Source: Fibrobacterota bacterium
GTDB taxonomy: Bacteria; Fibrobacterota; Fibrobacteria; UBA11236
Length of the DNA: 15,954 bases
Direction of reading: 5' to 3'
Assembly: GCA_043753995.1 (NCBI GenBank)
Contig: JAYUVP010000082.1
Location: 1 to 15,954, forward strand
In this document: positions 1,596-15,362 of the stretch, piece by piece
Layout: each line of letters opens with the position of its first letter
Position numbering within the stretch: position 1 is the stretch's first letter
Translations under genes and position numbers: made by a program
Notes under the pieces: model-generated
The model's input: only the letters and a program-made list of their open reading frames with translations
What the model was told of the DNA's origin: nothing
The model's database searches: none

Positions 1596-3344
1596 ATGGA
1601 CAACGACTCAATCAAACGTTTACGAATTCCCCATCTTACCAAGTGCCTAATTGTCTTTCTGATGGTGGCACAAGCCATCCATTCCCAGAGCTGCAATACC
1701 ATGCCTCCGGCTGCGGACTTCAAAGTGGAAAAACTGTCCACCGATGCTTTGGGCAACCCCATGGATATTGCCGTGGCTCCCGATCTCAAGGTGTATTGGG
1801 TAGAGCGGTACGGCGATTTCAAGATGTACGATCCGGTCACTAAAGCCACCCGCCTCATCAAGCATTTTGATGTGCTTTACGACATCAAGGACCTCGTCAG
1901 GACCGGCAAGTATATCAGTGATATGGAAAGTGGGCTCGAGGGAATTGCCCTGGACGGGAATTTCGCATCCAACCATTGGGTCTATCTCTGGTATGCGGTG
2001 CCCCCCAGCCGCTTGCCTGCGCCAATGGTGGGAGGTAAGCCAGGAACGATTGAAAGGCTGTCGCGCTTCACCTTAACATCGAACAATACCCAGTTGGATT
2101 CCGCATCCGAGAAGATCATTTTCCAGGAGACCTACTTCGCGCAATGCTGCCACTATGCGGGTGACCTGCAATGGGGTCCCGATGACAATCTCTGGCTCAC
2201 CACCGGGGACAATATGGTATCCACCTTATCCACCGACGATCCTTTCCGCGAGGGAGCCGAGAATACCGACGTGCGGCGCACCGCCAGCAATACCAATGAT
2301 ATCCGGGGCAAGATCCTGCGAATCCGTCCCATTCCCTTCCCGGATACCCAGACCCCGACCCCCGGGATCGGAACCACCTATACCATCCCGGAAGGGAATA
2401 TGCGCGACTATTTCGGGAAGCGGGGATTCTGGAGCGCGGCGGAGCTGCAACTGGTGCGGCAGGAAATTTATTCCATGGGGCATCGCAATCCCTTTTCCTT
2501 AGCCATTCACCCGGTCAAGCTTTATCCCGCCATCGGCGAAGCTGGATGGGACCATACCACCCTTGGCGAAGACGAGATCAATATCATCCCCCATCCGCAG
2601 AACAATGGATGGCCCTTTTTCAACGGCGGAAATGACACCAAGACTCAGGACGCGAGCCTAAGTCCCAAGCAATCGGCTTCCGCCCCGATGAATTTATCGA
2701 AATGGAATACGGGTTTGCAGAAGCTGCCCCCGGCCGTGCCTGCCGCCATTTCCCACCGTAGCGCAGCGGTGAAGATGAACTTTTTGTGTTACGCCACCGC
2801 ACTGCCTTGGGTCCATTACGATCCAGCCTTGAACTCCAAGGTGAAGTTCCCCCCCTACCTAGATGGCAAGCTGTTATTCACCTCATTCAGGGGCGCGCCT
2901 ATCCAAGCCGCCACGGTCGACGACAGCGGGCGGGTCACTCGCGTGGAGCAGGTCATGCCGTCAAGTTTCGATCTCTCGTATATCATGCGATCGGTGATGG
3001 GGCCGGACGGAGCCATTTACATCGCCCGCGGCATGGAAGAATACGGCACCGCTCCTACCCAAGATTCGCGCATCGTCAAGTTGAGCTATGTGGGTTCTTG
3101 CGCTCCCGTGGTGGCGACATTCCGGGCCACCGGTTCCCGTCTCATGCGCAATGTACCGACCTGGCTTCATCATCTCGGAGGGGATTTTCGCTTGCATTGG
3201 CCCGAGGGTGCCAGCCGTGTTCAGGCCTATCGATTGGACGGTTCTTTAGCATGGGAGTCGCGCCGCCTAGGAAGCGCCGAGGACGGCGGCATTGCAGCCG
3301 CTATTCCCAGCGGCTTATTGCAATTGCGGTTTTACGCAGAATAA
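1596..3344 (+). CDS. Secreted glucose/sorbosone dehydrogenase-family (PQQ-dependent sugar dehydrogenase-like) beta-propeller with C-terminal secretion-type domain, paralog 1
   Basis: Signal peptide (CLIVFLMVAQAIHS|Q). Motifs ESGLEGIALDGNF, CCHYAGDLQWGPDDNLWLTTGDN, RGKILRI, MGHRNPF, EDEIN..NNGWP, GPDGAIY. C-terminal ~80 aa with VQAYRLDG, resembling a T9SS-type tail. Confidence 0.88.
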   Translation: MDNDSIKRLRIPHLTKCLIVFLMVAQAIHSQSCNTMPPAADFKVEKLSTDALGNPMDIAVAPDLKVYWVERYGDFKMYDPVTKATRLIKHFDVLYDIKDLVRTGKYISDMESGLEGIALDGNFASNHWVYLWYAVPPSRLPAPMVGGKPGTIERLSRFTLTSNNTQLDSASEKIIFQETYFAQCCHYAGDLQWGPDDNLWLTTGDNMVSTLSTDDPFREGAENTDVRRTASNTNDIRGKILRIRPIPFPDTQTPTPGIGTTYTIPEGNMRDYFGKRGFWSAAELQLVRQEIYSMGHRNPFSLAIHPVKLYPAIGEAGWDHTTLGEDEINIIPHPQNNGWPFFNGGNDTKTQDASLSPKQSASAPMNLSKWNTGLQKLPPAVPAAISHRSAAVKMNFLCYATALPWVHYDPALNSKVKFPPYLDGKLLFTSFRGAPIQAATVDDSGRVTRVEQVMPSSFDLSYIMRSVMGPDGAIYIARGMEEYGTAPTQDSRIVKLSYVGSCAPVVATFRATGSRLMRNVPTWLHHLGGDFRLHWPEGASRVQAYRLDGSLAWESRRLGSAEDGGIAAAIPSGLLQLRFYAE

Positions 3345-3346
3345 AT

Positions 3347-3369
3347 TGGATAGTTGGATGGTCATAAAC
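3347..3369 (+). promoter_or_regulatory. 23-bp conserved upstream box, copy 2 (candidate operator)
   Basis: TGGATAGTTGGATGGTCATAAAC, beginning after a 2-bp gap from the paralog 1 stop and 80 bp before ATG 3427. Confidence 0.75.
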
Positions 3370-3426
3370 ATTTTGAAATCAGGATGATGCGAATATTCGA
3401 AGGGCCGGGCCTACCTTAAATAGCCT

Positions 3427-5163
3427 ATGAAGCATCACTCGTGTGGGCAATTCGGGATTCCCGGTTTTGTCCTTTTGATTTCTGCCTTTTTGATGCTGGC
3501 GCAGGCCATTCATTCCCAAGGTTGCAATGCTATGCCCCCGGCCTCGGACTTCAAGGTGGAAACCTTGTCTACCGACGTTCCGGGCAATGCCATGGATTTG
3601 GCCGTGGCTGCCGATCTCAAGGTTTATTGGGTGGAACGCTATGGCAATTTAAAGGTTTACGATCCGGTGACGCGTGCCACCCGACTCCTCCGGCATTTCG
3701 ACGTGATGTATAACGCCTCGGGGCTCAACTATCTCGGCGGAATGGAAACCGGGCTGGAGGGCATAGCCTTGGATGGCGATTTCACCCGTAACCATTGGGT
3801 CTATCTCTGGCATGCTGTACCAGCGAAGCGACTTTCCGGAACGGTGACAGGAGGTAAACCAGGACCTATAGCTAGGCTATCGCGCTTCACTTTGTCGACG
3901 GACAATACCCAGTTAGATACGGCCTCGGAGAAAATCATCTTCCAGCATACGACATTCGCCCAATGTTGCCATCATGGGGGCGATTTGGACTGGGGTCCTG
4001 ACGGCAACCTTTGGCTCACCACCGGCGATAATATGCAATGGACCCTATCGACCGACGATCCTTTCCGGGAGGGGAACGAGAACACCGATGTACGGCGCAC
4101 CGCAGGTAACACTAACGATACCCGGGGCAAAATTCTGCGCATCCGTCCCATCCCCTTTCCAGATTCGCAAACCCCTTCGCCTGGCGTGGGTTCCACCTAC
4201 ACCATACCGGAAGGGAACCTGCGCGATCATTTCGCGAAGCAGGGATTCTGGAATGCCGCAGAACAGGCCTTGGTGCGACCGGAAATCTATTCCATGGGTC
4301 ACCGCAATCCTTTTTCCCTGGCTGTGCATCCCGTCAAACATTTTCCCGCCGACGGCGAAGCCGGATGGGACAATGCCGCTAATGGGGAGGATGAAATCAA
4401 TATCATTCCCCATCCTCAAAACAATGGTTGGCCTTTTTTCAATGGCGGAAATTCCGATGGACCCCAGAAGGCGAGTCTCAATCCCAAGCAAAACGCAACT
4501 GCTCCGATGAATTTGTCGAAATGGAATACGGGCGTGCAGAAGCTGCCTCCTGCCATTCCCGCAGCCATTTCCAACCGCACGGCGGCCGTGCAGACGAATC
4601 TGATTTGCGTGGGCACCGTGCTGTCCTGGGTGCACTATGATCCGGGTTTAGATTCCAAGATGAAGTTCCCGCCTTATCTCGACGGCAAATTGCTGATCTC
4701 CTCCCTTGGCAATGCCCCATTGCAGGCCGCCACGGTGGACGATAGCGGGCGGGTCACCCGCGTGGAGCAGGTATTGGGCGTGCGTTCCGAACTGTCCTAT
4801 ATCTTTCGATCGGAGACCGGACCGGATGGGGCTATTTACATCGCCCGTGGCGAAGAACAATACGGAACCGCACCCACCTCCGAATCGCGCATCGTCAAGC
4901 TGAGCTATTCAGGAACCTGCGCGCCCGTCGTGTCTCTGGGGCAGGCCAAGGGGAAACGGCCTGCGCTCGGCGCTACGAGCCGGCTTTACCATTTGGCTGG
5001 AGAGTCCCGATTCACTTGGCCGATGAAGGCTGTAGGTGTCCGTGCCTATGCCGTGGATGGCTCCCTAGCCTGGGAAGCCCATCGATTTGGAAATGCTCAC
5101 GAGGGCCTAGTTCCGGCCGCCATTCCTTGCGGCTTGCTGCAAATGCGGTTTTACACGGATTAA
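3427..5163 (+). CDS. Secreted glucose/sorbosone dehydrogenase-family beta-propeller, paralog 2 (tandem duplicate of 1596-3344)
   Basis: Colinear with paralog 1 along its whole length: AQAIHS|Q, CCHHGGDLDWGPDGNLWLTTGDN, MGHRNPF, EDEINIIPHPQNNGWPFFNGGN, and the same type of tail ending GLLQMRFY. Confidence 0.88.
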   Translation: MKHHSCGQFGIPGFVLLISAFLMLAQAIHSQGCNAMPPASDFKVETLSTDVPGNAMDLAVAADLKVYWVERYGNLKVYDPVTRATRLLRHFDVMYNASGLNYLGGMETGLEGIALDGDFTRNHWVYLWHAVPAKRLSGTVTGGKPGPIARLSRFTLSTDNTQLDTASEKIIFQHTTFAQCCHHGGDLDWGPDGNLWLTTGDNMQWTLSTDDPFREGNENTDVRRTAGNTNDTRGKILRIRPIPFPDSQTPSPGVGSTYTIPEGNLRDHFAKQGFWNAAEQALVRPEIYSMGHRNPFSLAVHPVKHFPADGEAGWDNAANGEDEINIIPHPQNNGWPFFNGGNSDGPQKASLNPKQNATAPMNLSKWNTGVQKLPPAIPAAISNRTAAVQTNLICVGTVLSWVHYDPGLDSKMKFPPYLDGKLLISSLGNAPLQAATVDDSGRVTRVEQVLGVRSELSYIFRSETGPDGAIYIARGEEQYGTAPTSESRIVKLSYSGTCAPVVSLGQAKGKRPALGATSRLYHLAGESRFTWPMKAVGVRAYAVDGSLAWEAHRFGNAHEGLVPAAIPCGLLQMRFYTD

Positions 5164-5186: not shown

Positions 5187-7094
5187 ATGACGAATGATAA
5201 AATTGGAAATCATTTCTTTGTGATGATGCTTCTGGCCATGGCGCATGCAGCAAATGCCCAGACAGTCCACCTACGCGGCAAGGTGACCGATGCCGCGGGC
5301 AAACCCATCGCGAATGCGATGGTGGAATTAATGGGTGCTAAGCTGAAGGATACAACGGGTGCCGATGGATCCTATTCCCTGAACTTGGGCAGCAGTGCCG
5401 CGCGAACCTTATACGCCCCCATTTCTGGAGACATCAGACTAGACCAAGGCGTATTAGAACTTTCGGTGGCCAAGGCCGCACCGATTCGGATTGGGATCTT
5501 CGACGTGAAGGGAAATCTTCTGGAAACGCAGGCCGTGGATTTGGCCTCGGTGGGTACCTACCGTTTGAACGTGTCGGCAAAGATGAGGCCGGGAAGCTTA
5601 ATGCTCATCAAGGCTTCTATAGGCGAGGAATCAAAAGTCTTTCCCTACTTCCCGATGGCCCGTGGCGGAATAGCGAACGGTAACTTGGAATATTTCGCCC
5701 CGACGGGCTCGGAGTTATCGAAGAAAGCGGCCTTCGTGGATACGCTGAAAGCCACGGCTACCGGTTACCAACCGAAATCCTTCGCTCTCACCACCTTTGA
5801 TCTCGCGCAGAATATCCTTCTCGAAACCACCGCCAGCTGCGTAGCGCCGACGCTACCTACAGCCAAGGACGCAGTCACGCTCGATATGGCCGTGGCCGAG
5901 GGAGCGCCCACCTACCTCGCCTCTGGCTTCATCTATGGCATCTCCGAAGACGGAGTGCAGCCGCCCAATGCCCTGCTGACTGACATCAAGGTCAAAGCGG
6001 TCCGAGCCGGGCGCGGGGTTTCGCAAGGCTGCGGACAGGCAGCCTGGAATACTCACTGGAAGGTGATGAAGGCGTATTACGCCAAGGCGAAGGCCATCGG
6101 TGCCATCATGGAATTGTTGGTCAGCGATGACTATCAATATGCGTGTCCCGTTCCCGGCACCGACGGGGATTGGACGACCTTCACCGCTTTCATGGCCCAG
6201 CTCATCGACAGCGTGAAGGCCAATGGGATGACCGGTCCGGAAGTGCGGTGGGAGCTTTGGAACGAACCCGATCTCGACATTTTCTGGAAGGGCACGCAGG
6301 CCCAATGGCTGGAAACCTGGAAGCGCGCTTACCAACAAGTTCGCGTCGCGCTACCCAATGCCATGATCGAAGGGCCTAGTCTTGCAACAGGCCCCGGCGG
6401 AGCCTGGGCCAATGCGTTCTTTGATTATGCCAAGGCGAATAATGTCATGCCGGATTATGTCGTCTGGCACGAAGCCGGCGGGGGGGCCGATCCGGTGGCC
6501 GATTTGGCAACCATCACTCGTCAGCTTTCGACTCGAGGGATCGCGGGCGTGAAAGGATTTAATATCAACGAATACGGGGGGACTGGTGAGCAAAATCCTG
6601 GTCACTCCGCTTGGTTCCTCGCGAGATTCGATCGGGCGGGGATCCAGGGCATGCGTTCCAACTGGGCTGGAGGGTCGACATTCTTCTCCAACCTGGGCGA
6701 CCTTGTGACCACCAACTGGCAGCCGAATAGCCAGTACTGGGTCTATAAGCGCTATGCGGAGCAAACCGGCCTTCGGATCAAAACCACCGCAGGATCGCGC
6801 GTAGATGCGGTAGGTTACCAGGACATGGCTGCAGCCAAATCCATCCTCATTGTGGGCAACCGAGGGGGCTCAACCGGAGCGGTCAATGTCGTCATCCATA
6901 ATGTCCCGTCCTGGTTGCAGACCGGAGGGACCACCAAGGTCTTGCTGGAGAAAATGCCGACCGGCAAGGCAGCGGTGAGCGCCCCCACCGTGGTCTCGAA
7001 TGCATCCGCTCCTGTGACCTGCAATACTTTGATCGTGACCCTCGACTGGGCCACCGCGACCGATGGGTATGTGCTTACCTTGAGCCCGAACTGA
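5187..7094 (+). CDS. Secreted clan GH-A glycoside hydrolase (GH39/beta-xylosidase-like) with N-terminal carboxypeptidase-regulatory-like domain
   Basis: Start moved to ATG 5187 (GGAG at 5177-5180, signal peptide ...AMAHAANA|Q, no overlap with the upstream gene). WELWNEPD (acid/base Glu), IEGPS, VVWHE and FNINEYG (nucleophile Glu), with a C-terminal beta-sandwich. Confidence 0.8.
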   Translation: MTNDKIGNHFFVMMLLAMAHAANAQTVHLRGKVTDAAGKPIANAMVELMGAKLKDTTGADGSYSLNLGSSAARTLYAPISGDIRLDQGVLELSVAKAAPIRIGIFDVKGNLLETQAVDLASVGTYRLNVSAKMRPGSLMLIKASIGEESKVFPYFPMARGGIANGNLEYFAPTGSELSKKAAFVDTLKATATGYQPKSFALTTFDLAQNILLETTASCVAPTLPTAKDAVTLDMAVAEGAPTYLASGFIYGISEDGVQPPNALLTDIKVKAVRAGRGVSQGCGQAAWNTHWKVMKAYYAKAKAIGAIMELLVSDDYQYACPVPGTDGDWTTFTAFMAQLIDSVKANGMTGPEVRWELWNEPDLDIFWKGTQAQWLETWKRAYQQVRVALPNAMIEGPSLATGPGGAWANAFFDYAKANNVMPDYVVWHEAGGGADPVADLATITRQLSTRGIAGVKGFNINEYGGTGEQNPGHSAWFLARFDRAGIQGMRSNWAGGSTFFSNLGDLVTTNWQPNSQYWVYKRYAEQTGLRIKTTAGSRVDAVGYQDMAAAKSILIVGNRGGSTGAVNVVIHNVPSWLQTGGTTKVLLEKMPTGKAAVSAPTVVSNASAPVTCNTLIVTLDWATATDGYVLTLSPN

Positions 7095-7149: not shown

Positions 7150-9879
7150 TCAATTCCCAATCATCACGGTTTGAAGAATTCGTTTGCCTGCGACTTCCAA
7201 CTCCACGGGATAGAGCCCCGACAGTAAGGTCGCATTCCCCAAGGGCCAAATCAGAGTCTGCTCCATTCCAGCCATTCCCGACACGGTCAAAGCTTCGAGG
7301 GTTTCGCCCTTCAAATTGAAAAGACGAAACCGCAGCCATTCCGTCGGGCCCTTGCCTGACAAGGTGTAGGTGATACGCAGAGAATGAGCGCCTGGCTGCG
7401 ATTGGGCCTGAAGTCGCGTCAATGCAACTCTTCCAGTATTAATATTAAATCGCGACTGAATAGAATTAGATGTCTTTGATTTGGCCAAGCGGAAAAGCGA
7501 AAAGGTGCTGACCTCCTGTTTGATGATATTTTTGGCGGTATCTCTTGCCGTGACCTTGTACTCGGCCACCACGGTATCGGATTTATTGTCGTACTTAAAA
7601 GACTTCAAGGTGCTTTCATCGACCCCTTTCATATCCTGATCCTGGTAATGAAAGGTGAGGGATGCGGGAGGATCAAAAACTACGCCGGCCGGCGAAAACT
7701 CGCGCTGTACCTGAAGAAATTCGGCCGCCGGCGGATTGACTTGATCGTTTTTAATCAAAGGGGCATCAAAGCTTAGCGCTTTTTCCGCCCCCGTCGGCAA
7801 ACTAACTCGGGTACCCGAATCGACTTTAAGACTGGTACCGGTTCCATCTTCAATCACAACAGTTTTGGTGATTTTGCCTTGGGCATCGAAGAGAAGGGGT
7901 GAGCTTACCGGGGCGGTGACCGTGAATAGGCCTCCTGCATAGGATTCTTTCGCGGTAATGACTCGAACCGAGCGCACACCGGGCTGAGCCGAATCGCTCA
8001 CCTGTATTTGCGCTGAAACCGAAATGCCACTTGGAGCCGTAATGCCAGAAACCGTGATTCCTTCACCAAGATCTATAGCCGTCACACCTGTTAGAAAGGT
8101 GGTGTTGATGCCAATAATCGATATCTTGCCGCTTTTACCCTGACCCGCAACCGAAGGTTGAATGCTGGCTATTCCCTTGGCCTGATCGGCAAGCAGGATA
8201 TTATGTGACAAAGCTGTATCGATTTTTTGATTGAATGAGGTTGTGGCAAAGGAACTTCCCGTGGGTGGCCTAACCGTTACCCAATTGGTGCCTTCAGGCA
8301 TGAAAATCTCGTAAGCGCCATCCGAACCCGATAGGCATTCATCGCTAGGCAATTGGGTCATGCCATTTGACCAGAATGAAGATTGAACCGTGACACCCGA
8401 GACAGGTTTCAATGAAGCATCCAAAACCTTTCCCGCCATGCTATGAAAAGGAGGCAGCACAACTTCTTGATACAAGGAGTCAACCAAAGTAATGCCTCCG
8501 GCCTTGACCGTATGCTCCAGCATTTTGGGGATGCCTTGGACGCGGCTCATCATGCTACGAATGCGGAAGTCGGCATACTTTCCAGGTTGCAAAACCATGG
8601 TGAAACTTCCTTGGCCGTCGGTTTGAGTTTCTTTTTGTTCCAGTCCATTAGACAAAGCGACGGTAATGCCACTGACTGGTTTTTTATTGGCAAATAACAC
8701 TCGCCCGGTTAACATGCCACCGCGAACCAAGGCAATCTCCGCCGAGGAATCCGAGCTTATGGAAAAATTACGGATTTCTTTCGCATATCGACCAGTGGAA
8801 TCCGGATCTATGACCATTTGATTAGAACCCAGCGCACATCGCAGTTGAAATCGACCTAAACTATCGGTCACCGCATAATCGCTTGGCGGCTGACGCATAT
8901 TCATGATCCATGCGGTCGTCGACACTTTAAATTTCGCCAGGCCTTGGCCCCCTGAACTTAAAAGGCGCCCGGAGAAAAGCGGGTATTGGGGCAGGGTGAT
9001 GTCCTTGGTGAGGTCACCCGTCACCGTGAAATTTTCAAAGGCCGTGTATTCCAAATTGGCAGGAACTTGACTCAAGGTGTCACTCATGGCGCGAACACGC
9101 AAGGCAGAAACCGTTCCCTGCGAGACGACGAAACTGAAAGCACCTGAAGCATTGGTCCGTTTTTCCGTTTGCGTTCCGTCTTTGACTAAGGCCACAACAA
9201 TGCCAGCAATGGTTTGCCCCTGGGCGGTTCGCACCGTTCCAGACAACCGAGGCGCTGTCGTATATTCCACTTCGATGGTGGTGTCCTTTGTCAAAGTGAT
9301 TATCGATTGAAAACTCGCAAAGGCGCTGTCAGGCGAAATGGGCACGGTGAGCTTAACCTGGCCCGCAAATCCAATCAAACTATAAGCACCATCGGTACCT
9401 GTAGTGGCTTGGTCCGATGGCAGTTGAGTCATATTGCCATCCCACTTCTGCAAGGTCAAATGAGCATTGGCAACCGCCGTGCCGGTGGGCGTTTTCAGGT
9501 GACCCTCAACCTTGTATAAAGCAGGTAAGGTGACATTCTTAACGGTATTGCCGGAAATCGTCAAAGGTGTGACAGCCACGTATTCCATCATATGGGGGAT
9601 GCCGGCCACAGCCGATCCCATATTGCGTACACGAAGGTGGTCGTAGCTACCCTCCTCAATGCTAAAACTGAAATTACCGACAGCGTCGGTTTGCGTTTCT
9701 TTTTGGCCCGTCATTGTAGGTATCGCAATCGTGACACCTATAACAGGATTACCATTGGAAAATATTACTTGGCCTGAAAGCGAAACCTGAGCCGCCATCA
9801 CACCAAAGGGAAATGCCAGGAGGAGGTGGGTGACAGCTTTGAAGCTTAAGCTGCAAAAAGTGTTGCGAATACGGTACAT
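7150..9879 (-). CDS. Large secreted protein: six carboxypeptidase-regulatory-like beta-sandwich domains (3 x A-B), an Ig/IPT-like domain, a ZU5-like domain and a T9SS-like C-terminal tail
   Basis: Signal peptide (..GVMAA|Q), GGAG SD. Repeated LSGxV..G.P..G..V..T...G.F units. Ig-like SIQPSVAGQG...PGVRSVRVIT. FSPAGVVFDPPASLTFHY...TFSLF. Tail FRLFNLKGETL...LLSGLYPVEL. Confidence 0.8.
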   Translation of the reverse strand: MYRIRNTFCSLSFKAVTHLLLAFPFGVMAAQVSLSGQVIFSNGNPVIGVTIAIPTMTGQKETQTDAVGNFSFSIEEGSYDHLRVRNMGSAVAGIPHMMEYVAVTPLTISGNTVKNVTLPALYKVEGHLKTPTGTAVANAHLTLQKWDGNMTQLPSDQATTGTDGAYSLIGFAGQVKLTVPISPDSAFASFQSIITLTKDTTIEVEYTTAPRLSGTVRTAQGQTIAGIVVALVKDGTQTEKRTNASGAFSFVVSQGTVSALRVRAMSDTLSQVPANLEYTAFENFTVTGDLTKDITLPQYPLFSGRLLSSGGQGLAKFKVSTTAWIMNMRQPPSDYAVTDSLGRFQLRCALGSNQMVIDPDSTGRYAKEIRNFSISSDSSAEIALVRGGMLTGRVLFANKKPVSGITVALSNGLEQKETQTDGQGSFTMVLQPGKYADFRIRSMMSRVQGIPKMLEHTVKAGGITLVDSLYQEVVLPPFHSMAGKVLDASLKPVSGVTVQSSFWSNGMTQLPSDECLSGSDGAYEIFMPEGTNWVTVRPPTGSSFATTSFNQKIDTALSHNILLADQAKGIASIQPSVAGQGKSGKISIIGINTTFLTGVTAIDLGEGITVSGITAPSGISVSAQIQVSDSAQPGVRSVRVITAKESYAGGLFTVTAPVSSPLLFDAQGKITKTVVIEDGTGTSLKVDSGTRVSLPTGAEKALSFDAPLIKNDQVNPPAAEFLQVQREFSPAGVVFDPPASLTFHYQDQDMKGVDESTLKSFKYDNKSDTVVAEYKVTARDTAKNIIKQEVSTFSLFRLAKSKTSNSIQSRFNINTGRVALTRLQAQSQPGAHSLRITYTLSGKGPTEWLRFRLFNLKGETLEALTVSGMAGMEQTLIWPLGNATLLSGLYPVELEVAGKRILQTVMIGN
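8185..9786 (-). repeat. Three tandem ~178-aa internal protein repeats
   Basis: M(T/R)Q(L/P)PSD recurs with PSD at residues 154, 332 and 511. R(V/I)RxM...(I/V)PxxxE(Y/H) recurs with the same period, and QKETQTD occurs in units 1 and 3. Confidence 0.85.
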
Positions 9880-10099: not shown

Positions 10100-11686
10100 T
10101 CAGAAATGCAAGGCTGGGAGCAAGGTCAGGTATACTGGATTGAATTTCCCTTCGGTCCAAGTCCAGGCTGTCCCGTAGGTCATGGACAAGGAAACGCGGT
10201 TCCAAATCCATAGGCGTGCGCCAAAGGTGGCACCGGTCGCACCCGCCCATTCCCAATCGCGATTGACCTCATGCTCACCGACGACGCAGGTCTCGCCTTT
10301 GCCCAATGGACAGGGGCCAGCTTCATAGACCAAGTCCCCTTCGGGTTTGGTGGCGCGATGGAAGAAGGTTCCAGTGAACTCCACGTTTTCCCCCAGGAAT
10401 TTACCCGTCTCCAAGCCGACCTCCGCGTCCATGAAATTGCCAGAGGAATAAAGGTATCGGTGATGCGTCTTGTGGGTGGTAAAGCTGGCATAGGCACCTA
10501 GTTGAGGCCAGAAGCGATACCCCACCAAGCCCATAAGACTCAACTGGCTATGCGAGTCGAGCCAACCAATGCCCACGCGCAGGGGAAATTGAACCGGCAA
10601 ATCCGCATTGCGCCAGGGAAGATCTATGGCTTCGCTTTGCGAACCGCCCTTGGCAAGGCCTACGAACCGGAAGCCATTGGAGAGATCGGAAGGCCCTACG
10701 TCCTTGATTTCCTTGTCCTTCAGCTTGGTCTTGTATTGCTGGGTTTTGCGCCCATCTTTGTAAAACACCCGATAGGTTCCTGACGGAAGAGCAAGGAAGG
10801 CGTCTTTGCCTTTTTCCTTATGGAATTCTGCCATCACCACCGACTTCGCATTGGCTACCAGCACTTCGCCATTCAATTCTTGATTAAAGCTCAAGCCTCC
10901 GCGGCCTGAATTCAGGTCCGTCAGCACCACATCGCCTTGCACATCCATATTAATGGCCGCCATGGGATGCTGAGCCCCGCCGCGCGAATCTTCCGTTTCA
11001 ACCAAGGTCTTGTGATACGCGTATTGGTAGGCCTCCATCAAAGTCACCCGGCGATCGCCAGAAATATCCGCAGCTCCGCGCAAAGCACTCATGAGGTTAT
11101 GGGAGAAAAAAGATCCTTGCAATTGATCCGACTCCTGCGCATTCTCGTCCGGAGCGCTGGAGGCGATCATGATCGAGCCTTCGCTTTTCAATTTGTTCTC
11201 CACTACGAAAGGCTCCACCAGACGCGCGCCCTTCAGTCGGGTGATAGCGCCGCTCTGGCAAGCATCCAAAATGCCAATGCGTAGCTTAGCGGGGATTTTA
11301 TCGATATGCTCTTTGAGACCCTGGAGCGAATACTCCTTGCGGCCCAGCTTCAAGTGTGTTCCGGTGCCGTGGCCGGAGTAATAGAACAGGAAGACGATTT
11401 CATCAGCGTGATCGACCGAGAGGCTCTTGGCACTTATATCATCGAAAGCGCGATCGAGATCTTCAGGACGTGGCGATTTGAGCAAGACCACATTGTCTTC
11501 CTCCACCCCACCCGCTTCGACAAGGAGCTCGGCCATTTTTTGCGCATCGGCTTCGGCATATTGCAGGCGCGGATCGCTATCGATCCCGCGATTATGACCA
11601 GCCAGCAAGGCCAGTCGAACGGTTTTGGCATAAGCCGATGAAGCCGCGGATGCGAGGAGGATGGCGAAAAGGATTAAGGCTTTCAT
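10100..11686 (-). CDS. Exported caspase-family (peptidase C14, metacaspase/orthocaspase-like) protease with C-terminal probable outer-membrane beta-barrel
   Basis: Signal peptide (..SSAYA|K). LQYAEADA, catalytic YYSGHG (H106) and ILDACQSG (C143), AQESDQLQGSFFSHNLMSALRGAAD..GD..VTL.EAY.Y. The last ~165 aa have alternating amphipathic strands and end in LHF. Confidence 0.9.
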   Translation of the reverse strand: MKALILFAILLASAASSAYAKTVRLALLAGHNRGIDSDPRLQYAEADAQKMAELLVEAGGVEEDNVVLLKSPRPEDLDRAFDDISAKSLSVDHADEIVFLFYYSGHGTGTHLKLGRKEYSLQGLKEHIDKIPAKLRIGILDACQSGAITRLKGARLVEPFVVENKLKSEGSIMIASSAPDENAQESDQLQGSFFSHNLMSALRGAADISGDRRVTLMEAYQYAYHKTLVETEDSRGGAQHPMAAINMDVQGDVVLTDLNSGRGGLSFNQELNGEVLVANAKSVVMAEFHKEKGKDAFLALPSGTYRVFYKDGRKTQQYKTKLKDKEIKDVGPSDLSNGFRFVGLAKGGSQSEAIDLPWRNADLPVQFPLRVGIGWLDSHSQLSLMGLVGYRFWPQLGAYASFTTHKTHHRYLYSSGNFMDAEVGLETGKFLGENVEFTGTFFHRATKPEGDLVYEAGPCPLGKGETCVVGEHEVNRDWEWAGATGATFGARLWIWNRVSLSMTYGTAWTWTEGKFNPVYLTLLPALHF

Positions 11687-12456
11687 AGGCCTGCTTTCTT
11701 GCGCAAAAGAAAAAAGGAAACGCGGATGTCAGCCGATGTGCTCTGGGACAAGGCCCGCTCTAGGCTTGAAAAATCACGGGCCGATCGGCCCCAAGCCAAT
11801 CGCAGCCAGGCCTCCAATTCGTGGGCCTCGGAGGGCCCGGGCGTCCAAACTCCGACCAAGGCCTCGTCAAGGGGATCTGCATCTAATTCCAGGGCGAAGG
11901 GCAAGGTTTTGTCCTGCCCCGCAGGCGAAATGGAATGAGCTCCGAAACAGGAAAGGCATTCGATATGCCCCGAAGCATTCAGGGAAAAGAAGCGAATATA
12001 TCCCGCGCGGTCGGCCGAGTATATGGCCTGCAAGCGATCGCCGGGCCTAAACCCCTCGCCACTCGCGGCTGTGGCAATGCGCGTCCCGCGTTTGAGCAAA
12101 TAACCGACGTGGAAGCCCTCCCCCTTGATCCGAGTGTCCTCAGCACCTTGTCGCAGGCCGGCGGGATAATATTGGATGACGAGCGTGGCGACCACAGTCA
12201 GGACCGCAAAGGCCAGAGCGGGGCGGGGCGATAGCCAGGTTCGTATCCATTCCTGCCAGGCGGGTCGGTTGCCGGTAGCCGCTGACGGTGTGCGGGTTTT
12301 AGTCGATAATTTCTTCGACGGATTCCCTGCTGCCATGCGGGCTTCGGTGCGCACGGCCTCCATGACCCGGCGCGTAAATTCAGTGTCGGGAGGCACGGGG
12401 TGCTTCCGATCTTCCAGCCATGCGAACCATTCCTGGTCCAATTCTTTGGCGTCCAT
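11683..12456 (-). CDS. Single-pass membrane anti-sigma factor with DUF4384-like extracytoplasmic domain
   Basis: Starts 3 nt after the ECF stop and overlaps the caspase start (ATGA). Cytoplasmic PPDTEFTRRVMEAV motif, TM helix ALAFAVLTVVATLVI, then TRIKG and FRPGDRLQAIYSADRAGYIRFFSLNASG...LPFALELD. Confidence 0.75.
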   Translation of the reverse strand: MDAKELDQEWFAWLEDRKHPVPPDTEFTRRVMEAVRTEARMAAGNPSKKLSTKTRTPSAATGNRPAWQEWIRTWLSPRPALAFAVLTVVATLVIQYYPAGLRQGAEDTRIKGEGFHVGYLLKRGTRIATAASGEGFRPGDRLQAIYSADRAGYIRFFSLNASGHIECLSCFGAHSISPAGQDKTLPFALELDADPLDEALVGVWTPGPSEAHELEAWLRLAWGRSARDFSSLERALSQSTSADIRVSFFLLRKKAGL

Positions 12457-12459
12457 AGC

Positions 12460-13029
12460 CTATCCTTTCCCCGCGAATTCTCGAAGTTTGGCTTGCAGTA
12501 GTTCCCGGGCCCGGAACACGCGCGACCGTATTGTTCCCACCGTCGCTCCCAGGATCACCGCAGCCTCTTCGTACTCGAAACCGTCTACCACGGTCAGCTC
12601 GAAAGCCATACGTTGATCGGGATTCATCTGTTCGAGACAGCTCTCCATGAGAGATCGAATGCGCAGCTTACGGGCGGGATCCCCCAAATTCGGAGCAGGT
12701 AGATTTTGATGATCGTCCAGCTTTTCCGTAGACTTTCTCTTGCGACTGCGCATCAGGTCTAGGCACCCATTGCGTGCGATGGCGAAAAGCCAGGTGGAAA
12801 AGGAGGATTGGTTGCGACTTGTATAGTCTTCCAGCGATAGAAACACCTTCACGAAGGTGTCTTGGGCCAAATCCCGCGCGGCTTCGGGGTCCCGGATCAT
12901 GCGATTGAGGAAACCAAGCAATGGCCCTTGGTAACGCTCCACTAGTCCTGCAAAAGCGTCGTGTTCCCCGCTACGGATACGTTCGAGTAGGGCGTCGTCC
13001 TCGTGGGGGGTGGCAAGGTCTGAATGCAT
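12460..13029 (-). CDS. ECF (sigma-70 group 4) RNA polymerase sigma factor
   Basis: DDALLERIRSGEHDAFAGLVERYQ, region 2 ARDLAQDTFVKVF...FSTWLFAIARNGCLD, region 4 GFEYEEAAVILGATVGTIRSRVFRAR. ATG 13029 preferred over TTG 13086. Confidence 0.95.
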   Translation of the reverse strand: MHSDLATPHEDDALLERIRSGEHDAFAGLVERYQGPLLGFLNRMIRDPEAARDLAQDTFVKVFLSLEDYTSRNQSSFSTWLFAIARNGCLDLMRSRKRKSTEKLDDHQNLPAPNLGDPARKLRIRSLMESCLEQMNPDQRMAFELTVVDGFEYEEAAVILGATVGTIRSRVFRARELLQAKLREFAGKG

Positions 13030-13041
13030 ACGATTTCGGAG

Positions 13042-13068
13042 TAGGACGTCAGAAAATCGGAAAAGTTC
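13042..13068 (-). promoter_or_regulatory. Candidate ECF autoregulatory promoter
   Basis: Minus strand GAACTT-N15-GTCCTA directly upstream of the sigma ATG (13029). Fits the common ECF -35 GAAC / -10 (C)GTC pattern. Confidence 0.65.
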
Positions 13069-13123
13069 ACTTTTCTTCCGAATCAACGGTGAGATTCTCG
13101 GCGCTTTTTTGCCGCGACTAAGC

Positions 13124-13693
13124 TCAACCTTCTTGAGTGAGTCGGCTTAATGTTTCGCGGCTGACGCCGAGATATGCGGCCAGGTATTTTTTGGGGACGC
13201 GCTGGTTGAGTCCCGGATATTGCTTCCGAAAATTCCGAAAACGATCCGTGACGGGCTCTTGGAGGAGGGAGATAATGCGGCGCTGCAGGGCCGCATATCC
13301 CAATCCCGATTTGACGCGGAAGAAGTGCTCCATGGCATGGACCTCCCGGCACAAACTCTCGCGATCCTCGAAGCGAATGGTGAGGACCTCACTCGCCTCC
13401 ATGCAATCGACATAAAGAGTCGCTGGAGTGCGATGGAGGAAAGCCTGGTAGTCCGTGCACCACCAGCCTTCTGGGGCGAATTGCAGGATGGGATCACGTT
13501 CCTGGGGATGGAGGAGATAGGCTTTCAGCAAGCCCTTGGCGACCCAATGATCGCAGGGGACGGGGTCCCCGGGCTGAACCAGGAATTGGCGTTTACGAAG
13601 CGTGCGCAGGAAGAAGCGCGGATGCACCAGATCCCATTCCTTCTGAGTGAGCGGACTGACGGCTTCGATATGCTCTCGAAGTAGGTTATGCAT
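13124..13693 (-). CDS. Crp/Fnr family transcriptional regulator (cNMP-binding domain, Bacteroidota-type)
   Basis: LRKRQFLVQPGD...VAKGLLKAY...ILQFAPEGWWCTDYQAF and C-terminal QRVPKKYLAAYLGVSRETLSRL. ATG 13693 (MHNLLREHI) gives the typical ~190-aa length. Confidence 0.9.
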   Translation of the reverse strand: MHNLLREHIEAVSPLTQKEWDLVHPRFFLRTLRKRQFLVQPGDPVPCDHWVAKGLLKAYLLHPQERDPILQFAPEGWWCTDYQAFLHRTPATLYVDCMEASEVLTIRFEDRESLCREVHAMEHFFRVKSGLGYAALQRRIISLLQEPVTDRFRNFRKQYPGLNQRVPKKYLAAYLGVSRETLSRLTQEG

Positions 13694-14003
13694 GTGCGGT
13701 GAATAACTAAATCGAAAACCCTCCCAGATCAATTTTGACACGACATTCATATCACGCCCATTTTCCGTCATCTCCCAAGAGAGTTGCCATCGACGGTATC
13801 CATTTTTTCCCGATTGGCAATGGGCTGATTAAAACGCATCGCGTCTCCTAACGAAGCACAGAATTTCCAGTTTATCACGCAAGCGAAACTTCGGGGGGAT
13901 GCTGAGGCCGACCGTGCCCCGGGGGTAAGCGGGCCGAGGCTGGGGGGGCGTTTGGAAAGCACGGATTGAAGGGCTGAGCCCCCCCCGTCACTTAAACGTT
14001 ACG

Positions 14004-15362
14004 CTATTCTGGCGCTATTGTGGTGCGCCCGAGAGGCGAAACAAGTGGTAATTCGGGCCATAAGCCAAGGGAAAAGCGCGCATTTTTCAAGGTCCGGATG
14101 CCTCGCAAGCCAGGCAAAACCAGACGGTGTCGCCCCGATTCGGTTTGGACCTGCTTCACCCGGCTATCGAAACGCAAGTCGCGAATGGGGCTGCCGAGGA
14201 TGGCAATGCGCATGACCTTGCCTTGGGCATGATCGGTGTAATAGAAAGCGCCATCGGGCCCGAAGGTCATGGCGCTGGCCGAAGTGTTCTGAGCGAATGG
14301 GTAAGAGATATCGGGTATTTTTGGGTCGAGATAGCGTATCCAACTGTCAAAGCCGAAATCGCCGAAGAAATATTTACCCCTTAATTCGGCGGGAAAGGCG
14401 GACGAACCTTCGGCCTTGATGGGAGCGAAGGCCCCGCCCACAATACAACTACCCACGGTCTTTTCGAGGCGGCTACCCGCATTGCCCTCACGCGAATAGG
14501 CCAAGTGCGGATGGACATAACCGGGATGCGTAATGCGATCGAATGCCCCCTCGGTGGCCGGCCAACCAAAATCGCCACCTGCCGCCGCGATATTGATTTC
14601 CTCATAAGCACCTTGGCCTACATCATTGATGAAGAGCCGACCGGTGACAGGTTCGAAAGCGAATGAGAAAGGGTTTCGCAAGCCAAAGGCGTAAATGGCG
14701 CGCGCCTTGCCCGAGGTACGAGCCAGCAGGGGATTGTCGGAAGGTATTTGGGCATTGCTGTCGGCCACTGGCTTGATGCGGATGATTTTACCGAAAAGGC
14801 TTTTCATATCTACTGCATTCTCGGGCCAGGCCACCTCACCATGCGAAGCATAAAGCATGCTGTCGCTGCCGAAATGAAGGCCGCCGCCATTGTGATTATA
14901 CAGGCCACTGCGAGGATAATCGAAAAGTCCCGCTTCCCCTTCAACGGGGTCAGCGACATCGCCACTAGCCTTGAACCGAGCGATGCGATTGTGGTCTTGC
15001 GGGGTTCCCGTAGAATAGAAGACATAGACATTGCCGTTGACCGCGAAGCTGGGATCCAGGGCGATCCCCAAGAGCCCGGATTCGGCTCCGGCCTCCGTGC
15101 CCTGTATCTTGGCGGTTACGGTGGCGAAAGAAGTGGCGAGCAGGGTGCCGTCTTTCACAATGCGCACGCGCCCCGCCTTTTCCGTAACGAAAAGCCGCCC
15201 ATCAAGAGCGAAGGCCAAGGCGGTGGGATATTGCAGGCCGGTGACCAAAGGTAAGGCGGCAAAGCCCTCAATGGTTTTTACTTGGGCTTGGGGTGCTTGC
15301 ACCGCTAAGGCGAATAAGCAGATCCAAGCGATTCGGAATGGTCGGATTTGAGAGGGGGGCAT
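14004..15362 (-). CDS. Secreted glucose/sorbosone dehydrogenase-family (aldose sugar dehydrogenase YliI-like) protein
   Basis: AGGAGG SD, signal peptide (..APQA|Q). PTALAFALDGRLFVTEKAGRV, ESGLLGIALDPSF, HNGGGLHFG, FGLRNPF, DVGQGAYEEIN, FGWP, YFFGDF, FGPDGAFY. Basic tail ending SPLGR. Confidence 0.9.
   Translation of the reverse strand: MPPSQIRPFRIAWICLFALAVQAPQAQVKTIEGFAALPLVTGLQYPTALAFALDGRLFVTEKAGRVRIVKDGTLLATSFATVTAKIQGTEAGAESGLLGIALDPSFAVNGNVYVFYSTGTPQDHNRIARFKASGDVADPVEGEAGLFDYPRSGLYNHNGGGLHFGSDSMLYASHGEVAWPENAVDMKSLFGKIIRIKPVADSNAQIPSDNPLLARTSGKARAIYAFGLRNPFSFAFEPVTGRLFINDVGQGAYEEINIAAAGGDFGWPATEGAFDRITHPGYVHPHLAYSREGNAGSRLEKTVGSCIVGGAFAPIKAEGSSAFPAELRGKYFFGDFGFDSWIRYLDPKIPDISYPFAQNTSASAMTFGPDGAFYYTDHAQGKVMRIAILGSPIRDLRFDSRVKQVQTESGRHRLVLPGLRGIRTLKNARFSLGLWPELPLVSPLGRTTIAPE

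Follow-up and report, generated by a model that had tools for sequence, protein, structure and literature searches.

An exported caspase encoded with an ECF sigma factor and a putative anti-sigma: a proposed dedicated site-1 protease in Fibrobacterota

Results

The window analysed here is the entire 15,954-base contig JAYUVP010000082.1 of a Fibrobacterota genome (GCA_043753995.1, designated G000), and it encodes a sigma factor of the extracytoplasmic function (ECF) type, a putative membrane anti-sigma and an exported caspase joined to a predicted outer-membrane barrel. This sigma/anti-sigma/caspase triad is a real, widespread system. We propose, with a probability of roughly 60%, that the caspase processes itself and serves as a dedicated site-1 protease acting on its own anti-sigma, a reading in which we infer every catalytic step. 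A sequence-only reading of the same DNA had cast the caspase as both dedicated sensor and site-1 protease for its anti-sigma, and conservation, topology and co-occurrence now support that proposal in part. A Lys/Arg-Gly motif shared by protease and anti-sigma and partly co-varying between them, which that reading had not noted, lends further support to site-1 cleavage.

The three genes are coupled and recur together

Inspection of the open reading frames (ORFs) reveals three genes in succession on the minus strand, namely a sigma gene at 12460-13086, a gene for a 257-aa anti-sigma-like protein at 11683-12456 and one for the 528-aa caspase at 10100-11686. The sigma and anti-sigma genes meet at TAG-GCT-ATG, leaving a 3-nt gap, and the anti-sigma and caspase genes share the 4-nt overlap ATGA. 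The ORF list, these junctions and the promoter conservation described below bear out the initial claim of three genes coupled in this manner behind an ECF-type promoter. The accompanying statement that no cas genes are present also holds, as no adjacent cas gene, SAVED or CHAT was found among the 10 main ORFs scanned in the window. Comparison of orthologous loci reveals no fourth conserved gene in the window's lineage.

The caspase occurs in 222 of 296 genomes of the window's phylum, a tally in which the unpublished genome G254 is counted. It also occurs in 60 of the 151 genomes from the phylum to which a Polyangia locus belongs. Neighbourhood conservation, proposed with the sequence-only reading as a check on it, was scored in two samples and is evident in both. 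The first sample held 112 loci including the window, 81 of which were scorable with at least 1,200 bases upstream; 74 of these carry both sigma and anti-sigma, one carries the anti-sigma only, three the sigma only and three neither. The second sample comprised 70 loci of this second phylum, that of the Polyangia locus (30 best matches and 40 chosen weaker ones). Here 61 of the 66 scorable loci are complete, four have a sigma only by profile and one has neither, and two of the four sigma-only loci show a divergent anti-sigma when read directly. Many loci are close kin, so these counts are not independent. Among hand-picked genomes, the anti-sigma domain is present in 33 of 33 caspase-positive versus 0 of 10 caspase-negative ones, and a search with the anti-sigma domain alone finds it in 5,658 clusters at E<=1e-10.

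In G000 itself the triad is complete at four loci (C82, C240, C355, C87), and one further caspase (C234) stands without a sigma. The latter precedes a cluster, named by eye, of TonB-dependent-receptor-like, lipoprotein and ExbB-like genes (C234:20319-27911), and homologues of three genes of this cluster follow a complete triad in genome G190 (L191:53-8961), a hint that the output may relate to uptake. Triads elsewhere are often followed by lipoproteins or TonB-dependent receptors.

The caspase is predicted to face the periplasm from an outer-membrane barrel

A Pfam search suggested by the sequence-only reading places Peptidase_C14 (PF00656) at 61.6 bits, above the cut-off of 21.4. The His106/Cys143 dyad, described at the outset as intact, is seen in SGHG and DACQSG, respectively, with His and Cys each kept in 181 of 182 caspase rows. 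Asp141 is kept in 181 of 182 rows, and position 47 is Asp or Glu in all 182. The model of the caspase and immunoglobulin (Ig)-like domains has a predicted local distance difference test score (pLDDT) of 87.6 and matches metacaspase 4 (Z 22.6, root-mean-square deviation 2.5, 209 aligned residues), where Asp47 and Asp141 align with the Asp of the metacaspase GCxND and DSC motifs. The equivalent aspartates presumably line the S1 pocket. The alignment indicates that the caspase keeps the acidic residues of Lys/Arg-cutting metacaspases. Characterised relatives are described as favouring basic P1 residues (PMC8283722), and known families suggest that the present enzyme likewise cuts after Lys or Arg.

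By a simple hydropathy rule, 116 of 120 homologues have a hydrophobic stretch at the N-terminus ahead of the caspase, in agreement with the signal peptide claimed earlier; that of the window protein is without a lipobox because it has no Cys. The full-length model (pLDDT 68.1) is weaker than the caspase-Ig model, and its last 163 residues form eight long strands. Foldseek aligns the barrel with OmpA (1qjp, TMt 0.73) and more generally with OmpA and OprF at TMt 0.73-0.76, and both the eight long antiparallel strands and the C-terminal aromatic residue (Phe) are those of an OmpA-like barrel. Pfam gave no match on the barrel segment alone. Classical autotransporter barrels have 12 strands, and the 163-residue, 8-strand barrel of the model does not fit this class. 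Both ends of an 8-stranded OmpA-like barrel lie in the periplasm, so that the caspase and the anti-sigma ectodomain would share this compartment. That is to say, by analogy with known families, the protein is probably exported, with its 8-stranded barrel in the outer membrane and its caspase in the periplasm.

Across 17 close homologues the caspase has a sequence identity of 68.6%, the barrel 33.8% and the two-Cys loop, itself kept in 16 of the 17, 17.5%. This drop fits a constant enzyme with a variable sensor. Just upstream of the sigma of another G000 triad lies a gene (C240:9149-10123) for a 324-aa exported protein that shares homology with the repeat/barrel portion at the C-terminus of the caspases (E 4e-14 and 3e-18), a protease-less copy of the presumed sensor.

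A Lys/Arg-Gly motif is common to the caspase and the anti-sigma

The product of the middle gene has the layout of a class I anti-sigma, with its gene at position +1, a single transmembrane (TM) helix and an N-terminus predicted in the cytoplasm. Its C-terminal domain does match DUF4384 (PF14326) in the profile search proposed earlier, but at 17.7-18.9 bits the match stays below the cut-off of 27; 33 of 62 family members have such matches at E<=0.01. DUF4384 can be carried by ECF25 anti-sigmas, as described in PMC7826278. At the N-terminus, zf-HC2 is found in 12 of 42 family members at E<=0.05 (two above the cut-off), and this motif (HxxxCxxC) gave no match in the window anti-sigma or in five clade members scanned. 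No useful match came from profile structure searches with the ectodomain and the short N-terminal domain or from single-sequence PDB searches with the caspase and anti-sigma, and a profile scan of the 257-aa protein found no TPR or CHAT. Lys253, near the C-terminus (window 11698-11700, minus strand), is invariant in 62 of 62 family members.

Inspection of the linker beyond the TM helix reveals a T-R-x-K-G consensus that is also found at site 1 of the caspase. With L052 dropped from the alignment as a non-homologue, the anti-sigma motif keeps Lys in 91 of 91 rows and Gly in 89 of 91, and the linker columns around it vary. At 8-41 residues (median 18) past the TM helix, the motif stands immediately before the first strand of the DUF4384-like domain, and K-G occurs within 75 residues after the helix in 89 of 92 anti-sigmas versus 24.9 +/- 4.1 in 500 shuffles. 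In the caspase, T-R-L-K-G sits nine residues past Cys143 (Lys 173, Arg 7, Met 1 and gap 1 in 182 rows), and the caspase-Ig model is disordered right after it, as indicated by a drop in confidence. Site 2, between the Ig-like domain and the barrel, has Gly347 in 118 of 120 rows. Every row that could be scored there (81 of 81) reads K/R-G; nine were unscored, eight of these cut by a contig end. The K/R-G motif is thus found in three unrelated structural contexts, and one signature in both protease and anti-sigma suggests that the protease may cut itself and then its putative inhibitor.

Co-variation of P1 was read in 65 second-phylum loci with an anti-sigma match, where the caspase site 1/anti-sigma pairs are K/K at 43 loci, K/R at 8 and R/R at 6, with 8 left unresolved by the script. 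The six R/R loci represent two lineages, each with K/K tree neighbours, and the anti-sigma has Arg at all six loci where the caspase does. L157 carries Arg at all three sites and its relatives L177, L178 and L180 carry Lys at all three; genome G324 holds both L157 (R/R/R) and a K/K locus, L136. The triad at L145 (1263-3999) has M-G in place of K-G at site 1 of the caspase and again in the anti-sigma, which may reflect altered specificity.

Eleven anti-sigma-like matches without a listed caspase alongside were also retrieved and read. Seven of them adjoin more divergent caspases, where three pairs are R-G/R-G with the same spacing, two have R-G with a longer linker, one is a K-G anti-sigma at a contig end and one is K-G/K-A. 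Another (L210:1781-5901) combines an ECF-like sigma with a TM anti-sigma, in which R-G comes ahead of a DUF4384-like domain, and a TPR-CHAT lipoprotein that is coupled to them and has its His/Cys dyad; its sequence reads as the same layout with a different clan CD protease replacing the caspase. The remaining three (L211-L213) are without sigma and without K/R-G, two being weak matches and one lying beside a caspase-FGE gene. DUF4384-like domains outside triads lack the motif (P0134, L211-L213). P0134, a protein of 758 aa, carries its anti-sigma-like N-terminus in duplicate together with four DUF4384-like domains in tandem, none of which has K/R-G before it.

The sigma factor is predicted to transcribe its own operon

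Both Sigma70_r2 and r4_2 of Pfam score above cut-off on the sigma, TIGR02937 reaches 95.5 bits against a cut-off of 42.9, and the nearest named solved chains are of the sigma-H and sigma-E types. Regions 2 and 4 alone make up a protein of about 190 aa, as in ECF sigma factors. The start is most likely ATG 13029, giving 189 aa. The promoter, GAACTTTT-N12-CGTCCTAC at 13068-13041, lies 11 bases before this ATG and is kept at L003, L185 and L186, with a variant form at L187 and L188, despite different neighbouring genes. Searches for the exact pattern return one occurrence per genome in 4 of 4 genomes searched and 0 control matches, and the operon's own promoter is the top hit of a matrix scan of G000. 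The same scan reveals no credible wider regulon (9 hits versus 50 in the reversed control). With no other credible target in G000, the predicted regulon is the operon itself.

In phylogenetic trees the sigma of the window's lineage branches among stand-alone ECFs and not within the main triad-sigma clade. Placing it together with the sigmas from its caspase's sister clade is rejected (p 0.00097), and monophyly of all triad sigmas is not (p 0.055), in tests on quick trees with 10 rows left out and with groups picked after the trees were seen. Together with the short anti-sigma N-terminus without zf-HC2, this position makes the sigma and its binding domain look exchanged in the window's lineage, with the K-G/DUF4384/caspase part apparently retained.

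Feature coordinates and neighbouring genes

Table 1. Coordinates of the triad features within the window and the basis of each assignment
Feature	Position	Strand	Basis
ECF-type autoregulatory promoter (predicted); -35 GAACTT 13068-13063, -10 CGTC.. 13048-13041	13041..13068	-	Conservation, exact-pattern search, matrix scan
ECF sigma factor, RpoE/AlgU-like, 189 aa from ATG 13029	12460..13029	-	Pfam, TIGR02937, structure matches; ORF open to 13086
Putative anti-sigma of 257 aa with a short cytoplasmic domain, a single TM helix, the K-G motif and a periplasmic domain resembling DUF4384	11683..12456	-	Position +1, one hydrophobic segment, zf-HC2 of homologues, weak DUF4384
Predicted TM helix, about residues 80-97 of the anti-sigma	12166..12219	-	Hydropathy
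Anti-sigma T-R-I-K-G motif, residues 108-112; predicted cut after Lys111	12121..12135	-	Conservation in variable linker
Exported caspase-Ig-barrel protein, 528 aa	10100..11686	-	Profiles, hydropathy, models, Foldseek
Predicted signal peptide, about residues 1-21	11624..11686	-	Sequence and hydropathy; no Cys
C14 caspase domain: His106 (11369-11371), Cys143 (11258-11260), Asp47, Asp141	10913..11623	-	Conservation, fold match, metacaspase alignment
Caspase site 1, T-R-L-K-G (149-153), start of flexible linker after Cys143	11228..11242	-	Conservation, model confidence
Ig-like beta-sandwich, about residues 259-335	10682..10912	-	All-beta model, Z about 8 to small beta-sandwiches
Caspase site 2, L-A-K-G (344-347), linker before barrel; predicted release site	10646..10657	-	Conservation
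OmpA-like 8-stranded outer-membrane barrel, residues 366-528, variable Cys459/Cys467 loop, C-terminal Phe	10103..10591	-	Model, Foldseek, Atlas OMP-barrel clusters

Two genes flanking the triad were considered as parts of the system and rejected. Downstream (7150-9879, minus strand) lies a gene for a 909-aa exported protein with repeated carboxypeptidase-regulatory-like domains; it is absent from orthologous loci and has its own sigma-70-like site at 9939-9910. Upstream, a Crp/Fnr-family regulator gene (13124-13771, minus strand), which ends 56 bases before the ECF promoter, is likewise missing from orthologous loci. Elsewhere in the window are genes for three exported glucose/sorbosone-dehydrogenase-family proteins, two of them in tandem (1596-5163, plus strand; 14004-15362, minus strand), a regulator with GntR and periplasmic-binding-protein-like domains truncated by the contig end (1-1484, minus strand), and an exported GH39-like protein with a carboxypeptidase-regulatory-like N-terminus (5190-7094, plus strand).

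Discussion

The order of events that we propose would carry a signal across the cell envelope. A signal at the variable barrel and its loops, or a fault in barrel assembly, would activate the zymogen. Self-cleavage at Lys152 would constitute activation, and self-cleavage at Lys346 would release the caspase from its barrel tether. The freed caspase would next cleave the anti-sigma at Lys111 and so take off its bulky DUF4384-like domain, after which RseP would cleave the membrane stub and free the sigma. Renewed transcription of the operon by the freed sigma would provide positive feedback. The genome does encode an RseP-like M50 protease. A complex prediction for the caspase-Ig portion and the anti-sigma ectodomain scored 0.00 and is counted neither way.

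Several observations weigh against this order of events. After correction for the tree, the P1 test is left with only two independent pairs (p 0.5), and P2 and P3 co-variation gives p 1; the raw Fisher values for P2 and P3, about 1e-6 to 1e-7, vanished with that correction and are not counted. Eight loci have Arg in the anti-sigma with Lys retained at caspase site 1, which makes the coupling one-way, and L204 pairs a caspase K-G with an anti-sigma K-A. A sigma fusion considered at L204 found no support. The cytoplasmic domain of the window anti-sigma is without any family or structure match, and no target promoter besides the operon's own was found by the G000 matrix scan or by the exact pattern in the four genomes. 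Finally, the neighbour of the sigma gene in the Haliangium system encodes a caspase inhibitor (10.1101/2023.06.23.546230).

In one alternative reading, the K-G-DUF4384 ectodomain blocks the caspase active site as an inhibitor or pseudosubstrate, as PCi does, such that the caspase is a periplasmic effector output and the sigma is freed otherwise. The anti-sigma motif mimics the caspase's own linker, PCi is reported both to inhibit PCaspase and to be cleaved by it, and an operon that is its own only predicted target would suit this arrangement. The motif nevertheless keeps the distance from the TM helix expected of a site-1 cut, and PCi is described as CI-2-like and without homologues elsewhere; we regard a block of this kind as unlikely.

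Less likely still is a tripwire, with the K-G sites cut by an outside Lys/Arg protease (of a host, a phage or a predator) and the caspase acting only as an amplifier or as a downstream effector. K-G would suit any trypsin-like enzyme; PCaspase is described as activated by an initiator protease, and sets of sigma, anti-sigma and clan CD protease as often linked to defence. P1 changes track the operon and not the genome, however, as the two G324 loci illustrate.

It is improbable that cleavage plays no part, with K-G serving as a structural or docking turn and an ordinary ECF/anti-sigma pair transcribing an exported protease. Placement of the motif right before the first strand of the DUF4384-like domain and the non-significant formal co-evolution tests are in keeping with such a turn, but the identical motif recurs in three unrelated structural contexts, the four tandem domains of P0134 do without it, and P1 is limited to Lys or Arg, the paired Met excepted. 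Ligation of the K-G cut product to an envelope acceptor, as by some caspase-fold transpeptidases, is very improbable: the fold matches do include, at Z 19-20, chains of legumain-type ligase and of GPI transamidase, and the P1' Gly is almost invariant, but the nearest sequence and fold relatives are hydrolytic metacaspases and no conserved acceptor gene lies downstream.

If the caspase is indeed the site-1 protease of its anti-sigma, an abundant class of exported bacterial caspases would gain a concrete non-death job and ECF signalling a class of site-1 protease new to it. With Lys111, Lys152, Lys346 and Cys143 as its predicted residues, the mechanism is open to direct test, and a modular surface-to-promoter protease switch would be useful in synthetic biology.

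Comparison with known systems

Sigma-70/metacaspase operons were described by Asplund-Samuelsson et al. 2012 (PMC3501461) in Myxococcus xanthus (four operons), Anaeromyxobacter, Haliangium, Sorangium, Ralstonia and Fibrobacter, and are very probably of the same operon class as the triad. The section concerned notes the sigma neighbour only, and the anti-sigma, barrel, cleavage motif and mechanism are not named there. In the DdvS/DdvA system of Myxococcus xanthus, as described in PMC11506125, an ECF sigma is likewise paired with a TM anti-sigma, and a periplasmic caspase-clan His-Cys domain is proposed for site-1 cleavage, followed by RseP. That protease is a TPR-CHAT domain inside the anti-sigma and controls a CBASS-CRISPR island, whereas here a separate C14 enzyme sits on a predicted outer-membrane barrel. 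ECF54 is described with CHAT neighbours (PMC8999054).

Two CRISPR-associated systems share parts of this logic. In the accounts of type III-E Csx29/Csx30/CASP-sigma (10.1101/2022.08.17.504292; PMC10028731), the substrate of a clan CD protease is an inhibitor that binds a sigma, DUF4384 is the C-terminal domain in some Csx30 proteins, and the locus contains autoregulatory motifs. Csx29, however, is RNA-activated, Cas7-11-bound and of the CHAT type, and the window is without a cas gene. The Haliangium type III-B set of SAVED-CHAT, PCaspase, PCc-sigma, PCi and PCk, compared here by its description (10.1101/2023.06.23.546230), also encodes a C14 caspase with a sigma and a cleaved partner and activates it by proteolysis. 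It differs in its cA3 trigger, its CI-2-like inhibitor PCi, the cutting of the sigma itself and the presence of a kinase. No published account of the mechanism proposed here was found in the literature searched, which left subscription journals mostly outside, and an earlier description may exist.

Tentatively, and with the odds against so broad a view, the triad may belong to a large modular family of outer-membrane receptor-caspases, in which a ligand at the hypervariable barrel would lead to autoactivation and self-release and one K/R-G code would be read in both self and anti-sigma. Barrel, protease type (C14 or TPR-CHAT) and sigma cassette would be exchangeable, and the CRISPR-free module would be a possible source of Csx29/Csx30/CASP-sigma and DdvA-type defence switches.

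RseA-DegS-RseP and RsiW-PrsW are systems of regulated intramembrane proteolysis. Like them, the triad has an RpoE-like sigma with a GAACTT promoter, an anti-sigma predicted to span the membrane once and, in the genome, an RseP. In contrast to both, its proposed site-1 enzyme is encoded in the operon, as a cysteine protease tethered to the outer membrane and bearing its substrate's motif. We propose that the triad resembles regulated intramembrane proteolysis, but with a dedicated outer-membrane-tethered caspase.

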